64,000 nucleotides of DNA from a virus (IMGVR_UViG_3300046492_000163:1-64000); one strand, 5' to 3'; counted from the first letter of the stretch, positions 28,166 through 46,200 are shown. Numbers and translations are program-made. Notes: a model not told the origin generated them from the letters alone.

Positions 28166-28654
28166 ATGGCACGCGACAAGAAAACGGTTAAAAATCGTAC
28201 AGAGACGATCATCACCGATCACAAGACTGGGGAGGTTTTGAGCCAAGAATCGACCGTCACTTACAAAGTCCCACAAGAGCCGGACTTCGTGAAGGTGTAC
28301 ATCGAGTCCTTCACGGACATGGGACTGAGGGATCACCATGTGACCCTACTCTTCCAACTCGTTCGCAAAATGAACTACGAGAACGTGATTGCTCTCACAC
28401 CGGGCGCTCGGGTCAGGATCGGGGAAAAGCTGAAGATCCAGCAACAAACCTTCCGCAATTACCTGGCTGTTCTACTGGAGGCAGATATATTCCGGCGAAT
28501 AGGTCACGGAGAGTTCATGGTGAACCCGACCTACATTGCGAAGGCGAGGTTTGAGGAAAACGTAGCTCGACAGAAGATTTATTACAAAATCAAGCAAGTA
28601 AAGACTAAGAAAGGCCGAACTCCGAAGCCCAAGGAAGTTGCTCCAGATACTTGA
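28166..28654 (+). CDS. winged-HTH DNA-binding protein (candidate plasmid-type Rep or regulator)
   Basis: 162 aa; QQTFRNYLAVLLEADIFRRIGHGEFMVNP looks like recognition helix + wing; preceded by 690-bp repeat-rich non-coding DNA; convergent with par operon. Confidence 0.5.
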   Translation: MARDKKTVKNRTETIITDHKTGEVLSQESTVTYKVPQEPDFVKVYIESFTDMGLRDHHVTLLFQLVRKMNYENVIALTPGARVRIGEKLKIQQQTFRNYLAVLLEADIFRRIGHGEFMVNPTYIAKARFEENVARQKIYYKIKQVKTKKGRTPKPKEVAPDT

Positions 28655-28664
28655 GACAACAACT

Positions 28665-28690
28665 AAAGGGGCCGCAAGGCCCCTTTTTAG
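28665..28690. terminator. bidirectional intrinsic terminator between convergent genes
   Basis: AGGGGCC-gcaa-GGCCCCT + TTTTT. Confidence 0.6.
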
Positions 28691-28701
28691 TTCCATCATC
28701 C

Positions 28702-29238
28702 TTACTTGAGCTGCATCTTTCTCAATGTCTCAGCAGCCTTCTCGGGGGTGAGAAACCTATTGTGGGTCAACCACATGATCAACCCTTCCATTAGGATTGT
28801 CTGCCCAGTCAGGCCCCGAATTTCTTTCCGTGCTTCATCAACTACTTCGAACAGGTCGGGCGGAACTTGCACGCTCATTTGACTTGAGTTCTTTTTCTTC
28901 GTGCGATCATGTACAGGTGCGGCAAACATTACCGGCACCAGTTCTGGTTCAGGTTGAGCTGAAGTAACGAAAGTAATTGGTGGTTTCACGGGTTCTGGTT
29001 CTGGTTGACCTGGTTCTTCAGCAACTTTTGCTACAGGTGCGGCAGGCTGCGGTGCAACTTCCGGGGCATCCGCGATCTTGTGCAGCAATTGTTCAACCTC
29101 TTGCACTGGTGCGGGAGCTGGGGGCTCGACCGCTTCCGCTGGTGCCGCTGGCTGTAGTGGCACGGCTGTTGGATTGGGCGTTGCCTTCTCAGCCATTATC
29201 CCCGGTCTAAGGATGGATTCGCGTCGAGTGCGTGTCAT
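28702..29238 (-). CDS. ParG-like centromere-binding protein (RHH C-terminal domain, Pro/Ala-rich disordered N-terminus)
   Basis: C-terminus SVQVPPDLFEVVDEARKEI..GQTILMEGLIMWL fits a beta-strand-helix-helix (RHH) layout; downstream of parA; alternative start at 29196. Confidence 0.55.
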   Translation of the reverse strand: MTRTRRESILRPGIMAEKATPNPTAVPLQPAAPAEAVEPPAPAPVQEVEQLLHKIADAPEVAPQPAAPVAKVAEEPGQPEPEPVKPPITFVTSAQPEPELVPVMFAAPVHDRTKKKNSSQMSVQVPPDLFEVVDEARKEIRGLTGQTILMEGLIMWLTHNRFLTPEKAAETLRKMQLK

Positions 29239-29289
29239 GTTCGATTACCTGCGTACATGCGTGATTGAGTGCCCGGTTACTCGCATAAC

Positions 29290-29420
29290 CGGGTGGGTAC
29301 TCGGCTACCTACCAGAGTACCACACCGCCTACCTATTTGAATGGGTAACTGGGTAAGTACCCAACTGAGTAAATGGGTAGATACCCAGAGGTATATACAA
29401 GTGGGTAACTGGGTACTTAC
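29290..29420. repeat. centromere-like palindrome cluster (TGGGTA-NN-TACCCA units) downstream of parA
   Basis: TGGGTAAGTACCCA, TGGGTAGATACCCA, TGGGTACTTACCCA; the 31-bp block at 29370..29400 recurs at 31021..31051 with 1 mismatch. Confidence 0.5.
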
Positions 29421-29465
29421 CCACCTACCCACTCCAATACCCAAGCAGGGCAGTAAGGAATTAGG

Positions 29466-30224
29466 TCACTGGCTACTCACCAGCTTGAGTCCACGGGTGC
29501 CTTCTTTGACACCCAGCGACTTGCCTGCAACCTTCGGCCCGACCTTCGCCCGTTTCTTGACTTTTTCCTTGGGTTTCCGCAACTCAGCAGGTACTGGGTT
29601 CGGTTCTTTGATGCCAACTTCTTGCAGGATGAACTCAACCAGGTTGTCGATTTCCTCCACGCCTTGGTGGTTGGGATCGTATTCGTCCAAGGATTCGCCC
29701 CAGCCCATGCAAGTCTTAAAGGCAGTTGCTCGATGGACAATGCCCGCAACTTTCCCCACGCGGGAAAGCTCCATGACGGTTTCGGTTGTGATCCGTTCGC
29801 GTTTATCAACGATGTTCATCAGGAACACGGAGCGAGCGTGGTGTTCGGTCAGCGTGCCGAAGGTGTCGGCTGTACCTTCCAAATCCAATGGGCTTGGCTG
29901 GCACGGCACAACTACCAGATCGGCAATTTCATAAAGCTTGGACAGTTCTTCGTGCTTCCAGCCGGGGGTGTCGATCACGACACAATCCACGCCCAACTCC
30001 CGCAATTCATCGAGCCTTGGGCGAAGTTGTTCGAACGTAACTTTCAGCAGTTCGGGGAACTGAGATTCACGGCGTTCCCACCAGCGTTTGATGCCGCCTC
30101 GGTGGTGGTCAACGTCAATTAGAACGGTGTAGTAGCCACGGTTATCCAGGTTGACGCCAACCTGGGCGGTGATGGTGGACTTGCCTACACCCCCCTTTTC
30201 GTTGGCAACAGCGAAAATTTTCAT
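29466..30224 (-). CDS. parA: ParA/Soj-family partition ATPase (type Ib size)
   Basis: MKIFAVANEKGGVGKST deviant Walker A; GAGGAA RBS before ATG at 30224; ORF-track N-terminal extension to 30305 rejected. Confidence 0.9.
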   Translation of the reverse strand: MKIFAVANEKGGVGKSTITAQVGVNLDNRGYYTVLIDVDHHRGGIKRWWERRESQFPELLKVTFEQLRPRLDELRELGVDCVVIDTPGWKHEELSKLYEIADLVVVPCQPSPLDLEGTADTFGTLTEHHARSVFLMNIVDKRERITTETVMELSRVGKVAGIVHRATAFKTCMGWGESLDEYDPNHQGVEEIDNLVEFILQEVGIKEPNPVPAELRKPKEKVKKRAKVGPKVAGKSLGVKEGTRGLKLVSSQ

Positions 30225-30299
30225 TGGGTGTTCCTCTATATAGGTGCTCACCTGGGTGAGCGGTTCCTTGCTTAAGTGATTGCTTGCGCGAATCCCCGC

Positions 30300-31060
30300 A
30301 TCCATGCGTGATTGGGCGAACGCTTACCTGTGTAAACGAACGGGTATGTCCCTAAGTCCGCAGTTCCCTGAGTAACTGAGTAAAGACGGAAGCGTGCAAT
30401 TACGCATTCACTTACGTCCGCAACCGGGCGAGTAATGGCTCACGGGCGTGGTTCCCCACTTCTTCCCTTGGGCGTCCACCTGTGTGAGCACGCACTCGGT
30501 TGCTCAATTACCTAAGTCAGTAGCCAGTTCCCCACGTACCTCAATGAGGAAGTCACCACCTACCTAGGCAAACACCTGGGCAAGTACATACCTGCTTGGG
30601 TGTTTACTCAGACGCATGCGTCCTTACCTGGGGATTTAACTACTCGGGTGGGTAATTGTCAACTTACTCGCACAATTAATGTAATACGCGCCTACCCACG
30701 TACCCAACCAAGCGAGTCCCTAGGGAGGTAGGTAGGTGCATGGTTGGTTGAGTAGTTGAGTGTGGAGGTAGGTACTCAGACAACCACCTAGTTACCCAAA
30801 TAGGTAAGTGAATGGCTACTGGCGTACCTATGGAATTACCTGAATACGCAAGGGATTACGCACCCACACACGTACCCGGTTAGGTAAGCACACAAGTGAT
30901 TACGTGGTTCCTTGCGTGCTGGAGTATGCGGTGACGTACTGGTGTACTGGAGTACCCAAATGAGTAATTACCCAAGTGAGTAGCTGGGTAGGTGGGTAAG
31001 TACCCAAAAGGGTAGATGGGTAAATGGGTAGATACCCAGTGGTATATACAACCTGTTTGA
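30300..31060. repeat. repeat-rich non-coding region upstream of parA (degenerate GGTAAG/TACCCA and ATTAC motifs); candidate centromere
   Basis: no credible ORF; >8 ATTAC(C/G) copies and many GGTA/TACC half-palindromes; perfect TGGGTA-NN-TACCCA units at 31000..31040. Confidence 0.45.
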
Positions 31061-31449
31061 TTTCCCGCTTGGCAGGGTCTGCCACCAGGTGTTGAGGCAG
31101 CAGCCGCAGCCCGAAGTTCTGTGAGCCTCTGTGAGGCCTTATAGGAGGTCGGCAACCCATTAGTAGCCTCGCCCTGGCAACGTCGCCTGGCTGGGCTATA
31201 GTGAAGGCGGGTAAGGTGTTGCCGGACGAATTTTCCCCATAACCCGGCATTCACGCAGATCAGGACGGGGTTGCCTCTGGCGTGCTGAAAGATGCGCGTA
31301 CAGCGAGTACGGACAGACACGGCCTTACCTGAAGCCCTGCCATGACCTGGTGGGGCTTTTTATTGTCCTACAATAATCCACTGTACATCTACACAGTGGT
31401 GGCTATACTGAGTACGTCAACCTCGGGCAGACCGTCAATCTTCCCATTT

Positions 31450-31480
31450 AGCCGCCCCTCACCAGGGCGGCTTTCTTTTG
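31450..31480 (+). terminator. intrinsic terminator
   Basis: GCCGCCC-ctcacca-GGGCGGC + TTTCTTTT. Confidence 0.55.
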
Positions 31481-31488
31481 TCCAATGC

Positions 31489-31580
31489 CGCTACAGGGGG
31501 CCTGGCTCCCAGAATGCCCGTACAGGGGGCTAGCCCCCAGTTTCCTCATAGGGGGGTATGCACTACACGGGGGTGGGTTG
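31489..31580. repeat. ACAGGGGG-core repeat cluster (4 copies, irregular spacing) incl. perfect palindrome GGGGGCTAGCCCCC
   Basis: tacagggggc x2, cataggggggt, acacgggggtg. Confidence 0.4.
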
Positions 31581-31688
31581 CGGTGGTGCCGCCTGTCAGG
31601 TAGGATCGCCGTGCGTGTCCGAGACTGTAGCTTCGACAGGGGTGTACCTGCTCCATCCCGTGGGTACATCAGAACAGAAGCATTGATC

Positions 31689-31720
31689 AGCCGCTTAGCC
31701 CACCTAAGCGGCTTTTCTTT
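31689..31720 (+). terminator. intrinsic terminator
   Basis: AGCCGCTTAG-cccacc-TAAGCGGCT + TTTCTTT. Confidence 0.55.
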
Positions 31721-31857
31721 GCCTGGTGGAAAGGCATCCTGGTGTTGACCTGGTGTTGACCTGGTGTTGGTCCGACCGATGTGGTAACGTGCCTGGGCTT
31801 TCCTTGTGTTGTGTTGTAATGGCAGGGGTGGGGAACTCGTAAACCCCCACCCATTGA

Positions 31858-31890
31858 AAAGGCCGTCCTCTTGGACGGCCTTTTCTTTGT
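31858..31890 (+). terminator. intrinsic terminator
   Basis: GGCCGTCC-tctt-GGACGGCC + TTTTCTTTG. Confidence 0.55.
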
Positions 31891-31923
31891 CCGGTAGAAA
31901 GTCCTGGTCCGACCTGGTTAAAC

Positions 31924-32295
31924 TTGGATAAACCTGGTGAGGGAACAGACATGCCCTACTATGACGGTCGTTGGCATCTATATAGCGAGCAAGAACGCCG
32001 CGAATATGGCGAGCGGAAGCGTGCCGAGTTGAGTAAGAAGTGGCACGCCAAGTGGATCAGTAGACAGGGCCTGAAAGATCGGCTCTGGACTGATAAGGCG
32101 ATCCAGGATTTTCTAGGTAAGCCTCGGGCAGCAGGCGCGATTAAAGCTTGGCTACGCAAGGATGTATTGCGGGCAGAGCGTGGCCCTGAATTCCAGACCT
32201 GGATGGAGAAACGCCGTAGATGGTTGGCGGCACGCGGCAAGCTACCCGCACCATATCCCCTGCCGGACAACGTGTTCCCCATTCGCCCGATGTGA
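31924..32295 (+). CDS. hypothetical basic protein (Arg/Lys/Trp-rich)
   Basis: 123 aa; lies between the two ACAGGGGG repeat clusters; alternative start at MPYYDG. Confidence 0.45.
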   Translation: MDKPGEGTDMPYYDGRWHLYSEQERREYGERKRAELSKKWHAKWISRQGLKDRLWTDKAIQDFLGKPRAAGAIKAWLRKDVLRAERGPEFQTWMEKRRRWLAARGKLPAPYPLPDNVFPIRPM

Positions 32296-32349
32296 TCCAG
32301 CAGAAAGAGAAAAGCCAGCTTTCGCTGGCTTCTCGCTTATCTTTCGCTC

Positions 32350-32733
32350 TTATGCAGCGGCAGACACTTGCTTCCAGCTCAGAACTTCGTCTTTGCCGTA
32401 CTTGCCGATCCACTCTTGAATCTTCTTCTTCAAGATGTTCGCCGCTCGCACGACTTCCCCAGTGTGTGGGTTTTTGTACTCAGTAAAGACTGTGTTCGGT
32501 CCTGCCTTCTTCGGCTTCTTCTCTTTGACCTCTACCACTGGCGGTACATAGTTCGGATCAAGGATCGTGTTCACATCTACCAAGGACATCCCGTATTTGG
32601 CTAGGAGTTCTCGCTGCTCAGCTTCGAAGGCCTGGAGCTTCTGTAGCTGGGGGTTATTCTCAAGCTCTTGAAGGCGGCGCTGTACGGCTTCGAACTCTGC
32701 TCTTGCTTCGTGTAGCTGCTTTACCAATGACAT
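32350..32733 (-). CDS. MvaT/MvaU-family H-NS-like nucleoid-associated protein (xenogeneic silencer homologue)
   Basis: 127 aa; MSL...coiled coil...ILDP...Lys-rich linker...EYKNPHTGEVV...LSW matches P. aeruginosa MvaT (LLDPDA, QYKNPHTGEVIETKGG...ESW), recalled from memory. Confidence 0.85.
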   Translation of the reverse strand: MSLVKQLHEARAEFEAVQRRLQELENNPQLQKLQAFEAEQRELLAKYGMSLVDVNTILDPNYVPPVVEVKEKKPKKAGPNTVFTEYKNPHTGEVVRAANILKKKIQEWIGKYGKDEVLSWKQVSAAA

Positions 32734-32892
32734 TCCGTTGCGTATCCGTGTTTGTTGTTAGGAGGCCGCACTATATCGCCCTGGATGAGACAACGGAAGA
32801 CCTGGTAGAGAGAACCCGATAAGTGAGAGAGAAAATTCCTCGATGCTCGACCTGGTTCTATCTTGATTGACCTGGATAAGCCTGGGTGTTCC

Positions 32893-32985
32893 CACTACAG
32901 GGGGGTGCTGGATTTCCCCACACGGGGGTACTGGATTTGCCCACAGGGGGGTCGCCAATGTCGCCACAGGGGGGTGGCCCCCTCG
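32893..32985. repeat. iteron array: 4 direct repeats, exact 23-bp phasing, core CCACAGGGGGGT
   Basis: GGGGGT ends at 32906, 32929, 32952, 32975; first two units also share (G/A)CTGGATTT. Confidence 0.6.
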
Positions 32986-33181
32986 GGAGTTCTCGCCCTG
33001 GTTGATCCAGGTAAGTCGTCCAGGTTGAGCCAGGTCCCCGCCCAAAATCCCCCGGCATCGAGCATCGATCCCCTGTCTGAACAGCGGACAGGCAGAAGCC
33101 CCCGGCTGGCCCGTAGGCCCCGGATTTGGCGCTATATAGAAGGGAATCGACGGCTGAAAAGAATTTGAAGAAGCGGCTTTA

Positions 33182-33198
33182 CTGTACGATTCATACAG
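33182..33198. promoter_or_regulatory. operator-like palindrome CTGTA-N7-TACAG (copy 1 of 4)
   Basis: CTGTACGATTCATACAG 48 nt upstream of gene 33246. Confidence 0.4.
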
Positions 33199-33245
33199 CC
33201 TAGGCTTGCCCCTATCGAAACGAGAAAGCCCCTAGGGGTGTAGGA

Positions 33246-33779
33246 GTGGCAACCATGCAAACCATGTCTAAGCGTTTCCCTATCAAAGAAGGCCCCCTGC
33301 CTGCCTTCGCCTTCGCTGGCTTCCAATGGCCGCGTTTTGTGGCTGCCTTGCCTCAAGGCTCCAAGGCTAAACGCCTTGCCCGCTATAAGGCGCTAGTGTG
33401 TGGCCCTACCTTCCACGCGCCTATCCCTGTAGTCGGCTCGAATCACTGCATAGGCTTCTATCTGGCTGGCGATGATATGCCCGCCTTGCGTTGGGCGTGG
33501 TGTGATGAAGTTTTCGGCATGGGGCGGGCTATTAACCATACCGGATGGTTTACCGACGAACACGGCGACGGGGAAAAAATCCGTGGCGTTGTTTTTACTC
33601 TAACCCATGGTCGCGGGTATTTGGCCGGGTGGTCTATGGGCCACGGCATGGCGAGCGGCTTAGAGTGCTACGTCTATGCAGATGCTACTAGTGCCGCATA
33701 TGCCGCCGATAGTGCCGCGCAGTTTCTGGCGGAAGTTGAACGCGACAACAACGCAAACAATGCAGACGAAGGGGAGTAA
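33246..33779 (+). CDS. hypothetical protein
   Basis: 177 aa, GTG start per ORF track. Confidence 0.5.
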   Translation: MATMQTMSKRFPIKEGPLPAFAFAGFQWPRFVAALPQGSKAKRLARYKALVCGPTFHAPIPVVGSNHCIGFYLAGDDMPALRWAWCDEVFGMGRAINHTGWFTDEHGDGEKIRGVVFTLTHGRGYLAGWSMGHGMASGLECYVYADATSAAYAADSAAQFLAEVERDNNANNADEGE

Positions 33780-33784
33780 TTAAT

Positions 33785-34246
33785 ATGGCACGTATTAAAA
33801 AAGGTTCTTATGTTCGCCATGCCGCCGTTTGGGTTAAAGGCGCGGCTGTTAGCCATATCTGGCACTTGGATTCTAATCCGGTTGGCTTGCGTGTTTCCCT
33901 GATGGAATGGGAAGACCACCCACACGAAGCAGAGTTAATTAAAGGCGATGGCCGCACCATTAACTTTAAAGTGTTGGCCGCTGGTGAACTTGTGGGGCCA
34001 CGGGTAGACGTTACTTTTGCAACCGCCGAAGTTGTATTAAAGGCAGCAAGGGAACAGGACTTAGACGCGGCTTGCATTATTATCCAAGACGCTATCGGCC
34101 AAACTGACGGCGGTGTCGCTGGAATGTTCTTTTCTGATCTTGACACCCCGGCAGAGTGGGGCACGTTCACAGTATCGGAACGCCTAGAGCGCCTTTGTAA
34201 TTATGTCTTGATGGAAAAGGCATACGCCGGAAACGGGAGTAACTAA
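33785..34246 (+). CDS. hypothetical protein
   Basis: 153 aa. Confidence 0.5.
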   Translation: MARIKKGSYVRHAAVWVKGAAVSHIWHLDSNPVGLRVSLMEWEDHPHEAELIKGDGRTINFKVLAAGELVGPRVDVTFATAEVVLKAAREQDLDAACIIIQDAIGQTDGGVAGMFFSDLDTPAEWGTFTVSERLERLCNYVLMEKAYAGNGSN

Positions 34247-34248
34247 CC

Positions 34249-34539
34249 ATGGTAACTCTACGCAATGAATTGTTGGTGCAAGTTCGGGAGTTTATCCGCC
34301 AGCCTCTAGCGTGGCCGGGATGCTATCCCAAAGTTTTGTTAATGGCAGACGGCGAAGTAATGTGTGCCGTATGTGCCAAAGCGAACTATCGGCTTATCAG
34401 TCAGGCCACGCGGTCTAATGATCGGCGTGATAGCTGGTGTGTTGCTGGTGTAGACTTGTTCCTTGAGGGCTCGCCCCTGTCGTGTGCCCACTGCAATAAG
34501 CCAATCGAATCAGCCTATGGAGAGCCGGAAAATGAGTAA
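34249..34539 (+). CDS. hypothetical Cys-rich protein (CAVCAKANY...CAHCNKP zinc-ribbon-like)
   Basis: 96 aa with two CxxC pairs. Confidence 0.5.
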   Translation: MVTLRNELLVQVREFIRQPLAWPGCYPKVLLMADGEVMCAVCAKANYRLISQATRSNDRRDSWCVAGVDLFLEGSPLSCAHCNKPIESAYGEPENE

Positions 34540-34813
34540 CAACGCCCCGCCAAGCATCCGCGTTTACGATGAACAGGAAGTCAGCCGCAAAGACATGCTA
34601 CGGGCGCTAGAGATAGGGGAAAGCATTATCTTCGCGTGTGCCCCTGATCAGTCCCTTGCACGTCTACAGGCCGGAATTTCTGGCTCCTACCGTGGCAAGG
34701 AGAGCATGTTTAAAGAAGGCCTAGAGCAGCAACGGGGGCTGCTGGTGTTTGAAGGTGAGGTGTCTGTACCTGTTACCCGCGTAACCCGCGTTAAGTCGCC
34801 ACCAGGAAATTAA
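34532..34813 (+). CDS. hypothetical protein
   Basis: start MSNNAPP with GGAG RBS. Confidence 0.45.
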   Translation: MSNNAPPSIRVYDEQEVSRKDMLRALEIGESIIFACAPDQSLARLQAGISGSYRGKESMFKEGLEQQRGLLVFEGEVSVPVTRVTRVKSPPGN

Positions 34814-34846
34814 AAAATTTTCTGCAAAATGGAGAAAATCGCCTTG

Positions 34847-34863
34847 CTGTATGGAAAATACAG
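34847..34863. promoter_or_regulatory. operator-like palindrome CTGTA-N7-TACAG (copy 2), inside 37-bp block shared with copy 4
   Basis: AAAATCGCCTTGCTGTATGGAAAATACAGCGCTACTCTT vs 39386..39422. Confidence 0.45.
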
Positions 34864-34920
34864 CGCTACTCTTCCCCTGTCGATAACGAAAACGCCCCCT
34901 AGGGGGCAAAGGGGTTCTAA

Positions 34921-38256: not shown

Positions 38257-38258
38257 TC

Positions 38259-39474: not shown

Positions 39475-39684
39475 ATGCGTGTTTTCCAAGCCTTTGTTTT
39501 CTTCATGATGTCGCTGATGCTGATTAACCAATACGCGCCAATGATTGGCGACCACTACCGGGCCAAGGAAGCGGCAGAAAAGGCCGCTGTGTTCCAAGCG
39601 AAACAGGAAGCAAGCCGCAAGGCCCGTATGTGTGCCGAGTTGCCGTTTCTCCGTGTTTGCAAGCCTCCACACCACGTCCGTTAA
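39475..39684 (+). CDS. small membrane/secreted protein
   Basis: start MRVFQAFVFFMMSLML with AAGGGTGA RBS. Confidence 0.45.
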   Translation: MRVFQAFVFFMMSLMLINQYAPMIGDHYRAKEAAEKAAVFQAKQEASRKARMCAELPFLRVCKPPHHVR

Positions 39685-39698
39685 TAAGGGGCTACATC

Positions 39699-40046
39699 AT
39701 GAACGAACTCTATAACCCGGACGACAGCTTCCCCCCGTTCGATAATATCGGGTCTTGCGTTGGAACCGAAAACGAAGGCCTTTGTTCGTGCTGCATTCCG
39801 GCGCCTAAACGCTCCTACTTCCTTAATCCAATCCTTGTATTGGCCGCAAGTGCCGCCCGTGGCGGTAACTCTATGTTCGCTGATTCGCTGTTAGATGTTG
39901 GCCGTGGTCGTCGCGATTGTAAGTCAATCCGTAAGAGCATTACCCGCTTGCGTGGTAACTGTGATTTGAATATCGCCCGCATTACTGAAAGTTCGTTGTT
40001 GCTTACTGGCTCGCCTTCCCTTGTCCGTCCTAAAGTAGGGGCTTAA
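39699..40046 (+). CDS. hypothetical Cys-containing protein
   Basis: start MNELYNPDD with AAGGGG RBS. Confidence 0.45.
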   Translation: MNELYNPDDSFPPFDNIGSCVGTENEGLCSCCIPAPKRSYFLNPILVLAASAARGGNSMFADSLLDVGRGRRDCKSIRKSITRLRGNCDLNIARITESSLLLTGSPSLVRPKVGA

Positions 40047-40048
40047 TC

Positions 40049-40633
40049 ATGATTAATACAAAGAACGCTCGTGATCTTGATATGTACGATGTTGGCGTAT
40101 TGTTCGCCGCCATGGTCGGCGTTAATTCTTCGGAACTTGCCGAAGAGGCCGACCGTTCGTTGGTTCAAATCGGCTATGACGAAGGGCTGGCCCGTTGCAC
40201 TTTCGCCGTTCAAGTTGTTGCGGAGAATCATCGCGACGAAGGCGACAACCGCGACGGTTGCATGTGGCTGGAAAGTTACGACGATGAGCACGAAGGCGGG
40301 CTCGCCCATCAATTGTTCATGTTGGACGTGAACAAAGAAGAGAACGCCGAACTGTTTCATGAAGTTGTTAAAGGCGTGGCCCTAGAGTGGCTGCATGAAG
40401 TTCAGGGCCTTACACTGTTCGCCGTTAATGACTTGGCGGGGGAAACTCTGTTCTGTGTTCAGGCTGAAACAACGCAGGAGGCTTTTGATTGTATCCCTGT
40501 CGCTCTAGAGGACAAGTTTGAAGTAGGGAACGTATACACCAGCATCGCTGAAACTTACGAAGATTACACTGTGTATCGCATGCCTGAACATCAGGCCGAC
40601 ACTTTCGCCGTCCTGATCAAGAAGGCGGGCTAA
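40049..40633 (+). CDS. hypothetical acidic protein
   Basis: 194 aa. Confidence 0.5.
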   Translation: MINTKNARDLDMYDVGVLFAAMVGVNSSELAEEADRSLVQIGYDEGLARCTFAVQVVAENHRDEGDNRDGCMWLESYDDEHEGGLAHQLFMLDVNKEENAELFHEVVKGVALEWLHEVQGLTLFAVNDLAGETLFCVQAETTQEAFDCIPVALEDKFEVGNVYTSIAETYEDYTVYRMPEHQADTFAVLIKKAG

Positions 40634-40635
40634 TC

Positions 40636-40761
40636 ATGTTTATTAAATTTCTCACTAGTGACATGGCGTTGCACTTGCTCGCCCTTGTTATTCTCGGGTC
40701 CGTTGTTGCTGGTGTGTTTGTTCACTTCGTCCGCAAGGCAATTAAGGAGGGTTCGCTGTGA
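40636..40761 (+). CDS. small membrane peptide (41 aa)
   Basis: MFIKFLTSDMALHLLALVILGSVVAGVFV...; tightly coupled to both neighbours. Confidence 0.3.
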   Translation: MFIKFLTSDMALHLLALVILGSVVAGVFVHFVRKAIKEGSL

Positions 40762-40988
40762 TTACCCGGCCTGATGTCTCGGGCTTTACTGCCCACCGGA
40801 TCAGGGAAGAGGCAGCAACACAGCCCATTGGGTTTGTGTTAGATTTTCCCGCCTGTTTCAGTGTAACGATGGTCGTTATAGGTGGCGAAGTTCTCGCCGC
40901 CCATGATCAGCAAGACGACGATGTAACTAAGTTGGTTCGCGAAGTTTGTGCCCCGGTGTTGCGTGCGTTGCCACGCTTCCCGGTGTAA
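40758..40988 (+). CDS. hypothetical protein (GTG start)
   Basis: 76 aa. Confidence 0.4.
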   Translation: MITRPDVSGFTAHRIREEAATQPIGFVLDFPACFSVTMVVIGGEVLAAHDQQDDDVTKLVREVCAPVLRALPRFPV

Positions 40989-41035
40989 CATGTAGTAAAG
41001 CAAGAAACTAAGTTCAATCAAACGGAGTCAATACC

Positions 41036-41674
41036 ATGGCAACAACTAAGAGCATTAAAACGGTTCAACAGATCGAAGCCGGGGGCGTCCACTATGGCTT
41101 GATCATGCAAGACGAAAGCGGGCTGTTCTATCGCCAGAAAGGGAAAAGCGGCCTGCATAACCCCAAGCATGACGGCATGCATTGCCCTGACATCGCCGCT
41201 GTAAAACAGGCCCTGTTGAACTCGGGCGATGAGCAGCAAGTAAAGGCAGGCCACGCACTCAAGGCGCCTAAAGCGGCTCCAAAGGCCAAGGAGGAAGCCC
41301 CGAAAGAGGCAGCCCCCAAGGCAACTAAAGAACCCGTGAAACAGCCAGCCAAAGAACCGGCTAAGCCTGCCCACGCCGTGGAAGTTCCCCCGGCAGGCGC
41401 CTCTAAAGTCCGTTACAAGTTGGTTGAAGCGTCCGGTGCCGTTGGCACGCATTATTGGCTCTATGCGGGCTATGAACACGCAACCGGCTTTAAATGGAAC
41501 GGGTCCGGCGGTTTTATGTTCCTGAACATGAACGCTGTAAACGACTTTCTACGTTCTAACGGTATCGACGGAAATATTGAAGTTGAAACCGTAGACGTTA
41601 CAAACGGAAGTTACGACCCTAACAAGGGCGTTGTAGCGCTCTATAAAGTTGGCCAACAAAGTCTCAGTTTGTAA
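41036..41674 (+). CDS. two-domain protein with Lys/Pro/Ala-rich linker
   Basis: 212 aa; APKAAPKAKEEAPKEAAPKATKEPVKQPAKEPAKP linker. Confidence 0.5.
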   Translation: MATTKSIKTVQQIEAGGVHYGLIMQDESGLFYRQKGKSGLHNPKHDGMHCPDIAAVKQALLNSGDEQQVKAGHALKAPKAAPKAKEEAPKEAAPKATKEPVKQPAKEPAKPAHAVEVPPAGASKVRYKLVEASGAVGTHYWLYAGYEHATGFKWNGSGGFMFLNMNAVNDFLRSNGIDGNIEVETVDVTNGSYDPNKGVVALYKVGQQSLSL

Positions 41675-41684
41675 GGGGGATAAC

Positions 41685-41948
41685 ATGAGTATTGAAATTT
41701 CGAAAGCCATTGAAACCTTCGTTAGCGCTAACCAAAACTTGCTCGGTAATCTTTGGGGTCGCTGGCAGGATGAAAAAGAATATGAAGACATCAACGAGTA
41801 TGGCGCGGTAATCGCTAAGAATTTTCCAGAAGGCTGGAAATTAATCAAATCTGCCAAACGTCCATTCGGGGTTACGGTTCAAATCGAACAAGAGCAATGG
41901 CAAGTCTCTGTAACTGGCCGCTCCATGGGTTGGAAGCGTATAAAATAG
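41685..41948 (+). CDS. hypothetical protein
   Basis: start MSIEISKA with AAGGGGGA RBS. Confidence 0.45.
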   Translation: MSIEISKAIETFVSANQNLLGNLWGRWQDEKEYEDINEYGAVIAKNFPEGWKLIKSAKRPFGVTVQIEQEQWQVSVTGRSMGWKRIK

Positions 41949-41965
41949 AACCCCAACGAAAGACC

Positions 41966-41994
41966 ACGCCGGGGCCAATGCCCCGGCTTTTTTA
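41966..41994 (+). terminator. intrinsic terminator
   Basis: GCCGGGGC-caat-GCCCCGGC + TTTTTT. Confidence 0.65.
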
Positions 41995-42148
41995 TGTCTG
42001 TTCCTGGGCTCGCCCTGGAGGAAGTCCCGAACACCCGAAGAAACACCCCCGCCAAGCCCCTGTGGATCGATTCCAGGAATTCCCCCGTCACCAGGTCATT
42101 ACCCCACCACTTTCTAGGCTCGCCCTGTGTAGGCCTCTATAGGAGCCC

Positions 42149-42740
42149 CTAGCAGCTAGGCCCCCAACTTAACTAATTACATATCTATTAATATGTGGCG
42201 TAGACGCCACGGGTAATTATCGCTAAGACGTACCGTCTTTCTTGTAATAGAGGGGGCAGGGGCCAGAAAGCCCCCTAATTAAAAAGCGTTCAATGCCGCG
42301 TAATACGCGGGGTGTAGCGTTATTCCGTGACGTGAACGTCACATATATACACCAGTCTATTGCGTAGCAATAAGTTAGTTACACTGCCCCATATACACTA
42401 CCCCATATAACTCCCTGCATAGTATAACTTCCGACTGTTAGTCGGGTATATGTCTCTATATATGTATTGAACTAACTTAGTTCAAATCCCCGTATTGCTT
42501 GCAATACAGTTAATTAACTATGACATATAGCCTATATCTTGGCGTAGCTAATCGGGACGATTGGGGTTAAGCCAAGCCTTTTTTCTATGGATTAAATTAT
42601 TTATATAGTTCCACGTGGAACAATTCGAACAGACACGCTAGTGTCAGAGTAAACCTAGACAGATAGCCCCGAGTCAGGGAGAATCTAGTGGAATCTGGCA
42701 CAGCCCAGGAATAGAGTCAGCTAATCGATCCTGGTGGATC
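42149..42740. repeat. AT-rich non-coding region densely packed with short perfect palindromes (>=12)
   Basis: GTGGCGTAGACGCCAC, AAGACGTACCGTCTT, CCGCGTAATACGCGG, GTGACGTGAACGTCAC, TATTGCGTAGCAATA, CCGACTGTTAGTCGG, TTGAACTAACTTAGTTCAA, GTATTGCTTGCAATAC, GTTAATTAAC, TTCCACGTGGAA, GACACGCTAGTGTC, GATCCTGGTGGATC. Confidence 0.5.
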
Positions 42741-42798
42741 AATAGAGATAAGACCCCCATATAACCATCCGACCTAGATAACACCAGGGTTAGAACGT

Positions 42799-42826
42799 TG
42801 TTCCCATATTAGGTATTATGTTAAAT
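42799..42826. other. dif-like 28-mer (candidate Xer recombination site)
   Basis: TGTTCCCATAT-TAGGTA-TTATGTTAAAT; right arm identical (11/11) to the XerD-binding arm of E. coli dif, ~21/28 overall to the Pseudomonas dif consensus (from memory). Confidence 0.45.
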
Positions 42827-43075
42827 CCCGGCCTAGTCGGCCCAGGTCAACTGACGAACGGTACTTGCGATATTTCTAGATTGTGCTAGCCAGGCCGGGG
42901 CCAGAAGCAAGAGCGGGTTTAACACCGAGCCACAGTTGGATGGATTCCAGGTATTACACCGAGCCACAGATTGTCGATATCTGGAAGTTACAAACTGTCC
43001 TGGTTAGTCCGTCCTGGTTGACCTGGCTGATAGTTGATATTCGCCCCAGTTGATATTCGGCAGGCGTAAGTAAGG

Positions 43076-43363
43076 GTGGTTTTAAAATTTGGAAAGTGGT
43101 ACACTTTTAAAATGGGAGACGTGCCCTCCAAAACAAAGTGGGAGTTTGCAATGGAAGCCAAGCTAGGCCGCAAGTACAGGATCGGTGGAGATGGTTGGTG
43201 GTACCTGGAACCAGGCGTACCCATCCTGGTGACGGATGAAATCCAGGTGAGTAGCCGCAATCCCACGGGCGTAGTTATAGAAGTGAAACGTGATGGTGAG
43301 TTACTGGGGCATAAGGCGATGCACCCCACCTTCTTCCAGCAAGACTTTGAGTTGATCGATTAA
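43076..43363 (+). CDS. hypothetical protein (start uncertain: GTG 43076, or ATG 43151 with GGGAG RBS)
   Basis: 95 aa. Confidence 0.4.
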   Translation: MVLKFGKWYTFKMGDVPSKTKWEFAMEAKLGRKYRIGGDGWWYLEPGVPILVTDEIQVSSRNPTGVVIEVKRDGELLGHKAMHPTFFQQDFELID

Positions 43364-43375
43364 GGATAGGCTGAG

Positions 43376-43933
43376 ATGTACAAGTTGACTGAAGACGACC
43401 TCCTAGAGTTTGCAAAGTGGTACTGGGAGAATAACGAAGTTCCCGAGGGCGTAGAACCCTTTGCGATTGGCGAAGATGGGGCCTACGTTCAGGAAGCCAC
43501 CCGTGATGCTCTGGTCCGCTGGGTGGACATGAAGTGTGCCGATGCTCTGATTGCATCTGGTATAACCCAAATAACTCGCTTCGGTGCTCCGCTGTACTGG
43601 ATCTTGGCTGAGGATGGTAGAACACCCAAGCAGACAAACAGTATCGCGCTGTGGGCTCAGTGCATGGGCAATGAAGCCATTAAGCGAGTTGCCTACGACA
43701 GTGACGACAACCTGGGTATCTCCGTCTCCACGGTGTTCTTGGGTATTGACCACGGCTACCACAGTAGCGAGCCAGTGCTGTTTGAGACGATGATTTTTGG
43801 TGGCAAGCACAACGAGTGGATGCAGCGTTACTGCACTTGGGAAGAGGCGGAACTAGGCCACCAAGAAGCCTGCGATCTGGCAGGAATCCAACGGAAGTTA
43901 TCAACCTGGATCGAGGGTCAACTAGATGCCTGA
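43376..43933 (+). CDS. hypothetical protein
   Basis: 185 aa. Confidence 0.5.
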   Translation: MYKLTEDDLLEFAKWYWENNEVPEGVEPFAIGEDGAYVQEATRDALVRWVDMKCADALIASGITQITRFGAPLYWILAEDGRTPKQTNSIALWAQCMGNEAIKRVAYDSDDNLGISVSTVFLGIDHGYHSSEPVLFETMIFGGKHNEWMQRYCTWEEAELGHQEACDLAGIQRKLSTWIEGQLDA

Positions 43934-44102
43934 ACTGACTGCCGAAGAGCACAAAGAGTTTGCAGAGTGGTTCAACAAGAATATCGAGATTCCCGATGAC
44001 GTGGAAGCCTTCGATGTTATGCCGGATGGCACATACGTTTGGCATGCCGCCCGTGACGGCCTGGTACGCTGGCTGGAAATGAGGCAGAGAGAGAACAACT
44101 AG
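43926..44102 (+). CDS. small ORF (58 aa)
   Basis: MPELTAEEHKEFAEWF...; coupled at both ends; N-terminus resembles start of gene 43376 (MYKLTEDDLLEFAKWY) suggesting a paralogue. Confidence 0.35.
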   Translation: MPELTAEEHKEFAEWFNKNIEIPDDVEAFDVMPDGTYVWHAARDGLVRWLEMRQRENN

Positions 44103-44486
44103 ATGACTACTCCAGTTGCAGTAAAGCGCTTTGTCATGTTGAACCCAGACGGGACTAACCGTGCAGGTAGTCTCATGAAGGCAGACGCTACAGTGGTGAT
44201 GACTCCGAGGGACGAACGGAATGCTATTGCACGCATCCTTGGCTGCAAGCAGGTCTATTGGTACGAGTTAAAGCTTCAGCAAGCGGATGGCGATTATCAC
44301 GCCAATGTCTACTTCGATCCAGACGCTGCTGAGAAGCGGTTGCCTATCAATGACCGCATAGACGTGATGATCCGTGACATGCACGATAAGAAACTAGCGC
44401 CCTACCCTGAGCTGCCAGTTTGCCTATATGGCCCTGTAGTCCTGGTCCCCGCTTCCGTTGGTGGTAATGGAGTTATGACCGCATGA
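44103..44486 (+). CDS. hypothetical protein
   Basis: 127 aa. Confidence 0.5.
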   Translation: MTTPVAVKRFVMLNPDGTNRAGSLMKADATVVMTPRDERNAIARILGCKQVYWYELKLQQADGDYHANVYFDPDAAEKRLPINDRIDVMIRDMHDKKLAPYPELPVCLYGPVVLVPASVGGNGVMTA

Positions 44487-44971
44487 GCAATGAAGTAGAC
44501 ATTATCACGAAGTTGATGCTGGCCCAAGTTAGCGCCTGCTCCTGTCAGACAAAGACTAGTGAAGCGGCCTGGCATGATACTTACTGCCTCTACCGCGTCC
44601 TAGATGAAGCTGTAGGAACGATCACCAGGCAGCATGTAGAGCAAGAAACCCTTCAGGCAGCCTATGAGTCGATGCGTGATCGCAAGAATTCGATTGTGCA
44701 TCTGCAACAGCAACTGTCTGCTGCTGCGGCAGAGATAGCCGAGCTGAAAGTTGACAAGGCTCGGCTAGACTTCTGGCAGGCCACCCCTGCCTATGTTGGT
44801 GGCTTTGCTCCCGGTAAGCGTCAGGTCTGGTCCTTCTTCGTTCCACCAGAGAGGGTCCGCAGTGGAGTAGGCAAAGTCTGCTACGGCGATACACTACGCG
44901 AAGCAATGGATCAGCTCCAGGTTATGCACGCGGATTTGACCAAGGGTTCTGACACAACTAAGCGGCACTGA
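44483..44971 (+). CDS. hypothetical protein
   Basis: 162 aa. Confidence 0.5.
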   Translation: MSNEVDIITKLMLAQVSACSCQTKTSEAAWHDTYCLYRVLDEAVGTITRQHVEQETLQAAYESMRDRKNSIVHLQQQLSAAAAEIAELKVDKARLDFWQATPAYVGGFAPGKRQVWSFFVPPERVRSGVGKVCYGDTLREAMDQLQVMHADLTKGSDTTKRH

Positions 44972-44979
44972 GGGCGAAC

Positions 44980-45177
44980 ATGGACAGTGAGAAGAAGATT
45001 CACGAGAAGTATTACCGCTTTGCCGTAGCTGAGTTACCCCGTGTTAAACAGGCTCTAGAAGCCCTCCAGCCCACTGGGGTTGATTGGTTGGACTCACTGT
45101 TCAGGATGCATATCAAGGACACGATACAGGGCTTTGAGGACACTATCGAAGAGTTTGAAAACAGGCCCAAACACTGA
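44980..45177 (+). CDS. hypothetical small protein
   Basis: 65 aa. Confidence 0.4.
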   Translation: MDSEKKIHEKYYRFAVAELPRVKQALEALQPTGVDWLDSLFRMHIKDTIQGFEDTIEEFENRPKH

Positions 45178-45264
45178 TAATAAAAGTTTGAAAAGTCGTA
45201 CACTAAGCTTGCTCCCCTGCTATACTGAAAGTACGTCGAAGGACTTACTAGTGGGAGCAAGTAC

Positions 45265-46200
45265 ATGATCGATTTTCAGGCTGGTGTAGATTCTTTCTGC
45301 GAATACCTGCGACTTGAACGTCAAGCGTCTGTTCACACTATCCAAGCCCGTCGTCGTGACCTGGCTAAAGTGATTGCCTACTGCAAGGCCTGCCATATCC
45401 CTGACTGGTCCTCCTTTGAGGCTGCGAACATGCGGGGCTTGGTCGCAAAGATGAACGAGAATGGTCAAGAGGCAAACAGCGTCAAGCGTCTGATGTCTTC
45501 CGTCCGTAGATTGTTCCGCCACCTCAAGTTGCAGAACGTGATCGCTGATGGTCATAACCCGCTTCATAAAGTGGACACACCAAAGGGTCACAAACGGCTT
45601 CCTCGGCACCTGCTCTCCTATGAGTCTGGCGACATGCTCGATGCTGAAGTGGAAGACACTTTCATTGCCCGTCGTGACCATGCCATTGTTGAACTTTTCT
45701 ACTCTTCTGGCCTTCGCCTCACTGAACTAGTGAACCTCGACATGGAGCACGTAGACTTCAACGACAAGTTGGTAACGGTAGTTGGCAAGGGCAATAAGAC
45801 CCGGATCGTTCCAGTGGGTCGCAAGGCTCTGGAGTCGCTTCAGGAATGGTTCAAGCACCGCGACCTGGTGGAAGCAAAGGGCAAGGCGATCTTCATCAGC
45901 CAGCAGGGCCAACGCCTCACCGGGCGGGCTGTCCGCATGCGGGTAGAAGCCATGGGCAAGAGCAAGCTGGGCCGTCACCTGTACCCGCACATGCTCCGTC
46001 ATTCCTTTGCCACAGATATGTTGTCTTCGTGCCACGACTTGCGTGTTGTACAGGAGCTGCTCGGTCACGCAGACATCAAGACCACGCAGATTTACACGCA
46101 CTTGGATTACGGCCATCTTGCAGGGGTGTACAACAATGCTCACCCACGGGCTAAACGCATTACAACTGATTCCGATATTGGAAAGAGCCATGAACTATAA
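45265..46200 (+). CDS. XerC/XerD-like tyrosine recombinase
   Basis: 311 aa; C-terminus HMLRHSFATDMLSSCHDLRVVQELLGHADIKTTQIYTHLDYGHLAGVYNNAHPRAKR near-identical in pattern to XerC; GGGAG RBS. Confidence 0.85.
   Translation: MIDFQAGVDSFCEYLRLERQASVHTIQARRRDLAKVIAYCKACHIPDWSSFEAANMRGLVAKMNENGQEANSVKRLMSSVRRLFRHLKLQNVIADGHNPLHKVDTPKGHKRLPRHLLSYESGDMLDAEVEDTFIARRDHAIVELFYSSGLRLTELVNLDMEHVDFNDKLVTVVGKGNKTRIVPVGRKALESLQEWFKHRDLVEAKGKAIFISQQGQRLTGRAVRMRVEAMGKSKLGRHLYPHMLRHSFATDMLSSCHDLRVVQELLGHADIKTTQIYTHLDYGHLAGVYNNAHPRAKRITTDSDIGKSHEL

Follow-up and report, generated by a model that had tools for sequence, protein, structure and literature searches.

Does a tailed phage that carries plasmid-type genes for replication, partition and dimer resolution also live as a plasmid? 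The question is raised by a stretch of viral DNA, IMGVR_UViG_3300046492_000163:1-64000, in which we have studied positions 28166-46200 (by the window, we mean the whole stretch of 64,000 nucleotides). An earlier note on this DNA had described a plasmid-type maintenance tool-kit inside a lambda-tailed phage, and had proposed either a temperate phage that lysogenizes as a plasmid in the style of P1 or N15, or a chimeric phage-plasmid. Every item listed in it is found in the sequence, and two of them had been described too modestly. Our answer is that the region is, with a probability that we put at about 0.58, the maintenance module of a temperate phage-plasmid, a siphovirus of ~107 kb. Judged from its genes and sites, the window would belong to an uncultured family of ~107-kb phages that probably persist in their host as plasmids.

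We favor a plasmid prophage because the set of functions for replication, partition and resolution is conserved over deep divergence. Virion genes, a plasmid replication gene (RepL) and a partition gene (ParA) stand together in one replicon, on contigs of 105-108 kb, and this is the gene-content definition of a phage-plasmid.

The phage family and its replication and partition module

What phage is this? The window is 64 kb out of a contig of ~106.9 kb, and its left edge falls within the tape-measure gene. Proteins 100% identical to its RepL initiator and its XerC recombinase are both found on one metagenomic contig of 106,866 bp, and the contigs of relatives measure 105,402, 107,073, 107,168, 107,407, 107,570 and 107,722 bp; therefore, the genome has a size of ~107 kb. 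The lambda-type tail of the earlier note is there, with a tape measure and a J-like protein of 2428 amino acids (aa), and a Band-7 gene comes after the tail genes. A nucleotide search with 28.0-46.5 kb finds no near-identical DNA in phage or plasmid collections (just a 96-bp match in the phage collection, and none in the plasmid collection). The nearest cultured phage is Pseudomonas phage vB_PpS_SYP (OQ183418, 107 kb), whose tail proteins are 38-53% identical to those of the window, and which also carries Band-7, thymidylate synthase and ribonucleotide reductase genes on a genome of similar size. We are probably looking at a siphovirus family with a Pseudomonas-like host, because the best matches of its XerC are all Pseudomonas XerC, because the silencer it encodes falls in the MvaT/MvaU family, and because its tail J protein is closest to those of Pseudomonas phages.

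The gene order Band-7, RepL, ParG-like, ParA, array and MvaT is syntenic in independent JGI, ENA and Logan assemblies (contigs of 105.4-107.7 kb), at least six of them, from different projects and with protein identities of 39-72%. To judge from this synteny, the module is a conserved core of the phage family and not an accident. Could it still be an assembly chimera, or a recently inserted fragment of a plasmid or a transposon that plays no role in the biology of the phage? The G+C content (0.55 in 29-34 kb vs. ~0.50 in the rest of the window) would point that way, and so would the absence of the module from vB_PpS_SYP. But the same gene order at those protein identities in at least six independent assemblies speaks against it, and no transposase or flanking repeats are seen. 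Synteny across independent metagenomic contigs of 105-108 kb means that the module is not a chimera, so the chimeric phage-plasmid of the earlier note is not borne out, and we regard this whole class of explanations as hardly credible.

The elements of the replication and partition half of the module are the following:

27476-28165, plus strand: conserved non-coding control region and origin candidate, 690 bp, from column conservation
27592-27620, plus strand: promoter-like site TAGACA-17-TAAAAT, upstream of repL and on the same strand
27627-27745, plus strand: structured element resembling a small RNA, 119 nt, with three hairpins, the last one an intrinsic terminator
27823-27886: large hairpin in the control region
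within 27476-28165: direct repeat AGCGAAGCGC
~27980-28070: A+T-rich spacer of variable sequence, seen in all three lineages examined
28108-28130: invariant 23-mer CATCCTCTAGTACCTTGATTTAG, shortly before the repL start codon
28166-28654, plus strand: repL-family replication initiator, 162 aa (Pfam PF05732)
28702-29238, minus strand: candidate ParG-like centromere-binding protein, 178 aa, 227 bp downstream of parA
29280-29450: tetramer-box array 1, between parA and the ParG-like gene, 14 G(G/A)GTA or TAC(C/T)C boxes, with end GGGTAGATACCCAGAGGTATATACAA
29466-30227, minus strand: parA, small type Ib Walker ATPase, 253 aa from MKIF, with the open reading frame (ORF) extending to 30305 (Pfam, NCBIfam, PHROG)
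30306-31060: tetramer-box array 2, upstream of parA, ~750 bp, 27 boxes, densest at 30940-31050, with end GGGTAGATACCCAGTGGTATATACAA

The earlier note had seen a winged helix-turn-helix (HTH) protein next to an A+T-rich stretch. The protein stands, and its label can be sharpened: it is the replication initiator itself, a member of the RepL family, with a Pfam PF05732 score of 43.8 bits (cut-off 20.3) over residues 3-145 of 162. In a tblastn search it matches, at 30-35% identity, the RepL of small plasmids (2.7-6.6 kb) that have no other replication gene, and homologs at 30-35% are also present in phage-like elements of Sodalis (phiSG1), Arsenophonus and Erwinia. Within the phage family, RepL orthologs have identities of 54-84%, on contigs of 105-108 kb. 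That homologs of this RepL act as the sole replication protein of small plasmids, and are also found in phage-like plasmids, is one of our reasons for reading the element as a plasmid prophage.

Upstream of repL, the control region has blocks with 80-81% column identity and no codon periodicity, in lineages whose RepL proteins are just 54-61% identical. The 119-nt RNA element has compensatory changes in 7 of its 31 pairs (in four lineages) and a folding z-score of -3.2, which make it a candidate copy-control or leader RNA; Rfam reports no family at gathering level either for this element or elsewhere in the sequence scanned. The A+T-rich spacer just 5' of repL is flanked by invariant blocks in the three lineages, and an A+T-rich 3' end inside repL is particular to the window among these three. 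We infer that 27476-28165 is the control region and the probable origin of the RepL replicon. The RepL origin of P1 includes an A+T-rich segment within the gene, and there RepL serves lytic growth (PMC9948254); thus, the presence of a RepL does not settle the lifestyle.

It is at this point that a virulent phage has to be considered, one with at most an unstable carrier state, which would use all these genes in productive infection. RepL would then be a lytic initiator; ParA and the ParG-like protein would place or distribute the genomes as they replicate, or sustain a pseudolysogenic episome for a time; XerC and the dif-like site described below would circularize the incoming DNA or process replication multimers; and the MvaT homolog would interfere with the silencing of the A+T-richer phage DNA by the MvaT/MvaU of the host. 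We find this explanation unlikely, though one to be taken seriously, and the evidence on it is distributed over the next paragraphs.

For the partition operon, the earlier note had proposed a ParA together with a ParG of the ribbon-helix-helix type. ParA is confirmed by an end-to-end match to NCBIfam ParA_partition (NF041546; positions 1-202 of 203, 115.8 bits), and its score, being under the equivalog cut-off of 180, marks it as a diverged relative and not as an equivalog. It also matches the Pfam families CbiA, AAA_31, MipZ and ParA, and PHROG 164 (ParA-like partition protein). With a likely start at 30227 (MKIFAVANEKGGVGKST), ParA has its Walker A motif, KGGVGKST, at residues 10-17 of the 253-aa form, it does not have an HTH domain, and it ends in a Lys-rich C-terminal tail. 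This fits the description of type Ib proteins, that is, a deviant Walker A motif KGGxxK[ST] and ~200-260 aa, without an HTH domain.

The putative partner of ParA has a disordered N-terminal tail, rich in Pro, Ala and Glu, and a conserved C-terminal domain of ~55 aa with the predicted pattern strand (QMSVQV), helix, G-L-T, helix. This domain is kept in two relatives (L004 and L005) and six representatives, and the family has ~7 representatives in 1.84 billion proteins. A low-confidence AlphaFold2 single-sequence monomer model of a fragment (predicted local distance difference test of 67) places helices at its residues 28-40 and 46-60 after QMSVQV, in a coil-helix-helix-helix arrangement. The protein has no Pfam, NCBIfam, PHROG or PDB sequence match, Foldseek reports nothing below E=1, and a word-indexed homolog search yielded no candidate; the best PDB profile match, a weak one (E=0.16), is to a CopG/Arc/MetJ protein. 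The domain pattern is that of a ribbon-helix-helix adaptor, and we treat the protein as a candidate for one. What stands of the proposed ParG is a small gene by parA, its tail, and the cognate phased boxes; the ribbon-helix-helix fold is not confirmed by the sequence and fold searches.

The two arrays are what one would look for next to such genes, and the centromere-like repeats that had been placed at the flanks of the partition operon turn out to be well defined. The pentamers G(G/A)GTA and TAC(C/T)C, which contain ACCC or ACTC, are 6-7-fold enriched in 29240-31060. The 41 boxes in 29280-29450 and 30306-31060 keep to a 4/8-bp register, such that, in each of the two stretches, all boxes of a given orientation have one single phase modulo 4. 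A 22-nt perfect inverted match joins array 1 and array 2, and Tandem Repeats Finder gives periods of 8 and 32 in array 2. In L004, the arrays are found in the same two places and with the same end, ...GTAGA-N2-TATATACAA, the box is now ACGC/ACTC, and the C-terminal domain of the ParG-like protein is ~46% identical to that of the window. In L005, the adaptor is closer to that of the window, and the GGGTA/GAGTA boxes are retained. Both relatives have arrays of ~1 kb at the place of array 2. The box and its presumed binding protein co-vary and the layout is kept, and this is good evidence that the arrays are a working centromere and operator of the ParA/ParG-like system.

There is a known system of similar design. 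In TP228, the parH centromere and the OF operator consist of degenerate ACTC boxes with 4-bp spacers, in either orientation, and each box takes one ParG dimer (PMC3130281). Like ParF-ParG-parH of TP228, the window pairs a small Walker ATPase with an adaptor that is likewise small and flexible in its N-terminal tail, and it has degenerate tetramer boxes (here ACTC alongside ACCC) separated by 4 bp, both direct and inverted, upstream of the operon (PMC3130281). The differences are several. The arrays of the window are far longer (~170 bp and ~750 bp vs. ~100 bp plus the operator in TP228), one array sits between the two genes, and the spacers are not markedly A+T-rich. The adaptor, with 178 aa of which ~100 aa are tail, has no detectable sequence similarity to ParG, and ParA, unlike that of TP228, bears a Lys-rich C-terminal extension.

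As for the virulent alternative, we know of a ParA and an adaptor with a phased centromere of ~1 kb from stably inherited replicons, and of none in strictly virulent phages. The module is, moreover, kept across lineages that have diverged to 54% identity in RepL. Both points argue against these genes being merely at the service of productive infection.

XerC and the dif-like site

The earlier note had also proposed dimer resolution, by a XerC-like recombinase at a dif-like site. The elements in question are these:

42170-42625: hairpin array (at least 10 short hairpins or palindromes) located to the XerC-arm side of the core site, ending in the palindrome GTTCCACGTGGAAC (42608-42621)
42799-42826, plus strand: dif-like Xer core site of 28 bp, TGTTCCCATAT TAGGTA TTATGTTAAAT (XerC arm, 6-bp center, XerD arm), 2.4 kb upstream of xerC
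45265-46200, plus strand: phage-encoded XerC homolog, 311 aa (database matches, NCBIfam, Pfam)

The recombinase is indeed a XerC homolog, and not an integrase of the phage kind. The chromosomal XerC of many Pseudomonas species matches ~95% of its length at 53-55% identity (50-55% over all its best matches), and the recombinase scores 311.2 bits with the XerC model TIGR02224 vs. 254 with the XerD model, while falling short of the TIGR02224 equivalog cut-off of 335.15. Its Pfam architecture is SAM_1 plus Phage_integrase, and the catalytic residues R151, K175, H242, R245, H268 and Y277 are all in invariant columns. In a neighbor-joining tree, the phage XerC copies are found outside the chromosomal Pseudomonas clade and on long branches, which fits an old capture followed by divergence. 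Orthologs in the same position exist in L090, L091, L093 and L098. No other integrase appears among the ORFs scanned in the window, itself 64 kb of the ~106.9-kb contig, in agreement with the previous observation that a lambda-type integrase is not evident.

The dif-like site, for which no coordinates had been given, can now be located at 42799-42826. Of its 28 positions, 21 agree with the dif of P. aeruginosa PAO1, more than at any other place in the window, and this score is attained in 2 of 300 shuffles. The agreement is complete in the XerD arm (11/11), and goes down to 7/11 in the XerC arm and 3/6 in the center. The XerD arm of the P. aeruginosa dif is GATTCGCATAATGTATATTATGTTAAAT, equal to the right arm of the window (PMC2731167), and the dif-like site has the sole exact TTATGTTAAAT in the window. 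A search with the 25-mer of the E. coli dif, allowing up to 3 mismatches, found no match; the site surfaced only when searching with the XerD arm.

Is the site used together with the gene? Five lineages have both the XerC gene and the core site, and the left arm and the center vary among them. For the lineages with xerC (L090, L091, L093/L094 and L098), the sites were compared in the equivalent non-coding gap:

Window: XerC arm TGTTCCCATAT, center TAGGTA, right arm TTATGTTAAAT
L090: XerC arm CCTTCCCATAT, center TGGGGA, right arm TTATGTTAAAT
L091: XerC arm CCTTCCCATAT, center TAGGTA, right arm TTATGTTAAAG
L093/L094: XerC arm GTGGCGCATAT, center CGGGTA, right arm TTATGTTAAAT
L098: XerC arm AGTTCGTATAA, center TGCCCA, right arm TTATGCGAACT

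For the lineage of the window, the simplest reading would be that the phage XerC acts on a private left arm, and the host XerD acts on a canonical right arm. In L098 (IMGVR_UViG_3300046542_000168; site at 1739-1766), the right arm is an inverted XerC-type arm and there is no XerD-type arm, and the XerC is 45% identical to that of the window; this may be the sign of a move towards a system with one recombinase.

The centers are informative as to what the sites recombine with. Tyrosine recombinases need matching centers for a complete exchange. The proteobacterial dif sites listed in PMC2731167 have the center TGTATA, unlike those of the phage family. Since the phage centers differ from TGTATA and from one another, the sites suit self-recombination better than recombination with the dif of the host, and that favors multimer resolution or circularization over integration.

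Integration is, nevertheless, a reading that a dif-like site calls for. In it, the site would be an attP at which the phage XerC and the host XerD insert the phage into the chromosomal dif, as in the integrative mobile elements exploiting Xer (IMEX), and RepL and ParA would be of use only until the phage integrates, or once it has been excised. The identity of the right arm with the XerD arm of the Pseudomonas dif and the overall 21/28 agreement are in its favor, and filamentous phages and other elements integrate at dif via Xer (PMC4246890). On the other side, the 6-bp center is unlike the TGTATA of the host and changes from one lineage to the next, one lineage has two XerC-type arms and thus a right arm that has ceased to be XerD-like, and a replication initiator plus a full partition system would be redundant for an integrated prophage. 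An IMEX should be found integrated at the host dif, between dif and dif-like sites, and two probes searched against 185,579 species-representative genomes find no integrated relative. The known IMEX elements use the XerC and XerD of the host, and are not known to carry a XerC of their own. All in all, we consider integration at dif very improbable.

Better comparisons are cer (from ColE1) and psi (from pSC101). They too have a core of 28-30 bp with a diverged XerC arm and center, a near-canonical XerD arm, and a conserved accessory region on the XerC side; multimer resolution would be the presumed role common to all of them, one that for the window is a prediction. The XerC of the window is encoded by the element itself and is ~53% identical to the host enzyme, whereas cer and psi use the XerC and XerD of the host. 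Where cer and psi have ArgR/PepA or ArcA sites, the accessory 450 bp of the window are an array of small hairpins. And one lineage has two XerC-type arms, unlike cer and psi.

L090 and L091 share the hairpin array with a conservation of ~70% and with stems that change in a compensatory way, and it is present in L098 too. In the relatives it is found at ~4700-5100 of L090, ~7500-7930 of L091, ~1150-1600 of L098 and 351-980 of L002 (vB_PpS_SYP). Because the stems vary by compensatory substitutions, the array suggests a nucleic-acid structure rather than a collection of protein-binding palindromes. It could be a Xer accessory element, an origin, a set of hairpin promoters or a packaging signal. 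In four lineages, the palindrome GTTCCACGTGGAAC precedes the core site by 158-191 bp.

The same order and orientation (hairpin array, GTTCCACGTGGAAC palindrome, dif-like site) is observed in vB_PpS_SYP, where the site is GTTACCCATAA CGTACA TTATGTTAAAT and has a perfect XerD arm. In this phage, the palindrome and the dif-like site (L002 117-161; L003 ~25040-25084) are inside a 351-bp repeat present at both ends of the GenBank record. vB_PpS_SYP has no xerC, RepL or ParA gene, and it might be circularized by the XerCD of the host.

Cre/lox has been proposed to circularize the P1 genome. Since order and orientation are homologous to those of vB_PpS_SYP, the palindrome and the Xer site of the window may be within a short, direct terminal repeat of its phage, and XerC and the site would be an analog of Cre/lox made from host parts; this is a tentative and rather unlikely idea. 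If it were so, two directly repeated Xer sites on the injected DNA would recombine to give a precise circularization, and plasmid dimers would afterwards be resolved at this very site. XerC, once captured, would have co-evolved with the left arm, with the host XerD on the right arm in the lineage of the window, and L098, with its two XerC-type arms, would have turned into a system that gets by on its one recombinase. Directionality would come from the adjoining hairpin array, as the accessory element.

The MvaT homolog, the 23-bp repeats and the neighboring genes

To the right of array 2 there is a regulatory stretch with a gene for a silencer:

31060-31900, plus strand: gene-poor stretch with four serial intrinsic terminators (terminator scan and direct reading)
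31951-32295, plus strand: basic ORF of 114 aa, preceded by CCTGGT repeats (31900-31940)
32350-32733, minus strand: nucleoid-associated silencer of the MvaT/MvaU family, 127 aa (NCBIfam, Pfam)
32896-32975, plus strand: four direct ACAGGGGGGT repeats with 23-bp spacing, in the divergent region between mvaT and a long rightward operon whose genes match no family

The MvaT-family silencer that had been noticed passes the NCBIfam equivalog threshold (NF041859, 79.0 bits vs. 75, positions 1-120 of 120) as well as that of the Pfam DNA-binding domain (MvaT_DBD, PF22055, 32.5 bits vs. 27). Its gene is kept in the same position in L004, L005 and L086-88, and no homolog is found among the cultured phages in our collection. 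The G+C content is ~50% in the window vs. 66.5% in P. aeruginosa PAO1, the one Pseudomonas genome checked, and because of this difference, a role of the protein in managing xenogeneic silencing, either reinforcing it or interfering with it, is plausible. Pmr, from the Pseudomonas plasmid pCAR1, is likewise an MvaT/MvaU-family protein on an extrachromosomal element, with parts for oligomerization and DNA binding (PMC4138198, PMC7273181). The carrier of Pmr is a plasmid, and the carrier here is a phage genome.

The 23-bp-phased iterons of the earlier note are real repeats, and conserved ones: L004 (14925-15004) and L005 (14581-14673) each have four copies of the ACAGGGGGGT motif in the equivalent position, and in both the motif flanks mvaT. 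Their role as an origin is what appears unlikely, and for these repeats an operator or promoter role is more likely. There is a second cluster of ACAGGGGG repeats at 31493-31575. As the origin for RepL, the ACAGGGGG array was rejected: it is 4.3 kb away from repL, it has no adjoining A+T-rich segment, and it brackets mvaT in all lineages examined.

Another repeat, the CCTGGT motif (GACCTGGTT), has 41 matches with at most one mismatch, where 15 are expected and no shuffle reaches 41. CCTGGT copies are found in tandem before plus-strand operons (31740-31940, 32799-33036 and 42997-43028) and scattered elsewhere, some of them overlapping TTGACC, and L004 has CCTGGG repeats at the equivalent place. 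The CCTGGT and ACAGGGGG dispersed repeats are likely candidates for the operators of some master regulator.

In the gene-poor stretch, the terminators are at 31331-31359, 31450-31472, 31689-31713 and ~31854-31880, and each of them is followed by TTTCTTTG(T)CC. The units that they delimit do not have a convincing ORF, and are candidate small RNAs or regulatory units; 31055-31365 has a folding z-score of -2.4. An Rfam match to RNAI at 31815-31887 (29 bits vs. a threshold of 47) we take as chance, and the other Rfam matches at E<=1 are weak and terminator-like. The 114-aa ORF that comes next has no Pfam, NCBIfam or PHROG match. In the L004 lineage (L086-L088), its position between parA and mvaT is occupied by a gene with an HTH_37 domain (Cro/CI-type), and by position the 114-aa ORF is a possible immunity regulator.

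Several observations concern the rest of the window. The G+C content is 0.55-0.56 at 29000-34000 vs. ~0.50 elsewhere, and G-rich repeats explain part of it. The J-like central tail fiber protein (5295-12581, plus strand) has 2428 aa, and 3853 aa in the L004/L086 lineage (L086 1-578); both far exceed the J of lambda. At 21667-21903 (minus strand) there is a HicA-like toxin gene (PADLOC, 26 bits, E=1.4e-6), whose L005 homolog matches Pfam HicA_toxin, and with one of its neighbors, at 21446-21670 and 21884-22342, it may form a toxin-antitoxin pair.

To the right of the silencer, a Pfam search gave no match for the ORF at 33246-33779, nor for any of the 20 proteins tested from the ~14 kb of plus-strand ORFs at 33785-47656, and beyond 34.8 kb homologs were not found within the available stretch of the L004 lineage. 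A protein of 236 aa (47699-48409, minus strand), matchless in all the family libraries searched, is 61-62% identical in L090 and L091, and L093 has a 235-aa gene in the same place; this gene is always at the convergence point past the xerC block. The right end of the window is a leftward block with ribonucleotide reductase, thymidylate synthase, phosphoesterase and exonuclease genes.

A plasmid-like prophage and its meaning

How would the module work? After entry, the DNA would circularize, and RepL would start theta replication in or next to 27476-28165, with the structured RNA upstream possibly tuning the synthesis of RepL. The ParG-like protein would coat the two ACCC/ACTC arrays that bracket parA, and would recruit and stimulate ParA, which would space the plasmid copies over the nucleoid; the ParG-like protein probably also represses its own promoters. 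Dimers produced by recombination would be resolved at 42799-42826, where we observe the site, the gene and their co-conservation, by a presumed partnership of the phage XerC on the left arm with the host XerD on the right arm. Finally, the MvaT/MvaU homolog may join or supplement the MvaT filaments of the host on this comparatively A+T-rich element, and in that way hold the lytic genes silent and spare the host part of the cost, a service that Pmr renders to pCAR1.

Additional support for a plasmid prophage comes from the relatives of ParA, from the HicA-like toxin, and from the Cro/CI-type HTH gene present in one lineage. The cultured-phage homologs of this ParA include phiHAP-1 and mycobacteriophages with an annotated ParA, and we take all of these to be extrachromosomal prophages. 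The same homologs count against a virulent phage, and so do the HicA-like toxin and an MvaT paralog of the pCAR1 kind (PMC7273181), which fit a long-term residence. In circular plasmid prophages, one typically finds a ParA of type Ib together with an adaptor of the ribbon-helix-helix class and a recombinase that is Xer-like (PMC8026635).

What weighs against a plasmid lifestyle? We have collected the following points. All family members are metagenomic, and none comes from a cultured bacterium. The PLSDB search, which asked whether relatives occur extrachromosomally, gave no match to the family, and the two probes used on the 185,579 species-representative genomes (the Band-7 alignment and the invariant 23-mer) gave no relative. 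The window has yielded no repressor of the CI, C1 or Cro type; the nearest to a regulator candidate are, on its far side, two weak cases, one Arc-like protein and one of the sigma-r4/HTH kind. Family and fold searches do not confirm that the adaptor has a ribbon-helix-helix fold. RepL drives the lytic and not the plasmid replication of P1 (PMC9948254), and a G+C content of ~50% together with ribonucleotide reductase, thymidylate synthase and exonuclease genes is common in virulent phages. Then there is vB_PpS_SYP, which forms clear plaques (PMC10580904), and is without RepL, ParA, ParG-like, MvaT and XerC genes; having a dif-like site and no partition genes, it tells us that a Xer site alone does not indicate a plasmid lifestyle.

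Many of these points are also those that favor the virulent alternative: the lytic role of RepL in P1 (PMC9948254), the ~50% G+C content with genes for ribonucleotide reductase, ThyA, an exonuclease and a phosphoesterase, and the lack of a repressor in the window and of a lysogen in the genome or plasmid collections. So does vB_PpS_SYP itself, with its own DNA polymerase and primase, its clear plaques, and its dif-like site in a 351-bp terminal repeat. As to the plasmid lysogen in the style of P1 or N15 that had been claimed, its gene content fits, and no lysogen, plasmid record or integrated copy has been found in the collections searched. With both sides considered, the phage-plasmid interpretation is a coherent and plausible reading of the gene content.

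Where would such a phage-plasmid stand among the known ones? P1 is, like the phage of the window, a tailed phage of ~100 kb. Both have an initiator of the RepL family, partition of the ParA type, and a tyrosine recombinase whose private site is of the 11-6-11 type, and for the window, as for P1, dimer resolution and the cyclization of terminally redundant DNA are the proposed uses of the site. P1 differs in being a myovirus, with RepA/oriR as its plasmid replicon and RepL as the lytic one (PMC9948254), and no RepA-type gene is seen in the window. Its partition is type Ia (a ParA with an HTH domain and an HTH ParB) rather than type Ib, its Cre is not a XerC ortholog, and lox has no relation to dif. 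Vibrio phage pVv01 and Escherichia phage D6 (PMC8026635, Table 1) have the same functional classes on a tailed-phage genome. Prophages of this type have other hosts and morphotypes, and the window shows no detectable nucleotide similarity to them. Their recombinases are 'Xer-like', where that of the window is a close XerC homolog with a dif-like site, and none of these circular plasmid prophages is reported with an MvaT-family gene.

The members of the SSU5/pHCM2 group are siphoviruses of ~100-110 kb that have, as here, nucleotide-metabolism and replication genes together with plasmid replication and partition genes. Unlike the window, they have a RepA-type initiator and ParAB. These phage-plasmids of Enterobacteria (PMC7969092) have another host range, and no close sequence relationship to the window is detected, with the best plasmid matches to the tail J being at most 47%.

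What we have in the window is, as far as its genes can say, an uncultured phage-plasmid that stands out by a XerC of host origin and the private site that co-evolves with it, by a parH-like centromere of unusual size, and by a gene of the MvaT family. Good documentation of phage-plasmids exists for enterobacteria, Vibrio, Bacillus and mycobacteria, and this family, apparently uncultured and with Pseudomonas-like hosts, is absent from the plasmid and genome collections searched. If plasmid lysogeny is true, it would add to Pseudomonas a type of large, transduction-capable episome, and would provide a compact RepL/ParA mini-replicon for tool building. The pairs of xerC and dif-like sites are a natural series of a captured recombinase and its site diverging together, in one lineage to a symmetric site, and they bear on the origin of private site-specific recombination systems such as Cre/lox. 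And an MvaT homolog in a phage, on a DNA that is ~10-15% G+C-poorer than that of P. aeruginosa, offers a handle on how foreign DNA meets xenogeneic silencing.

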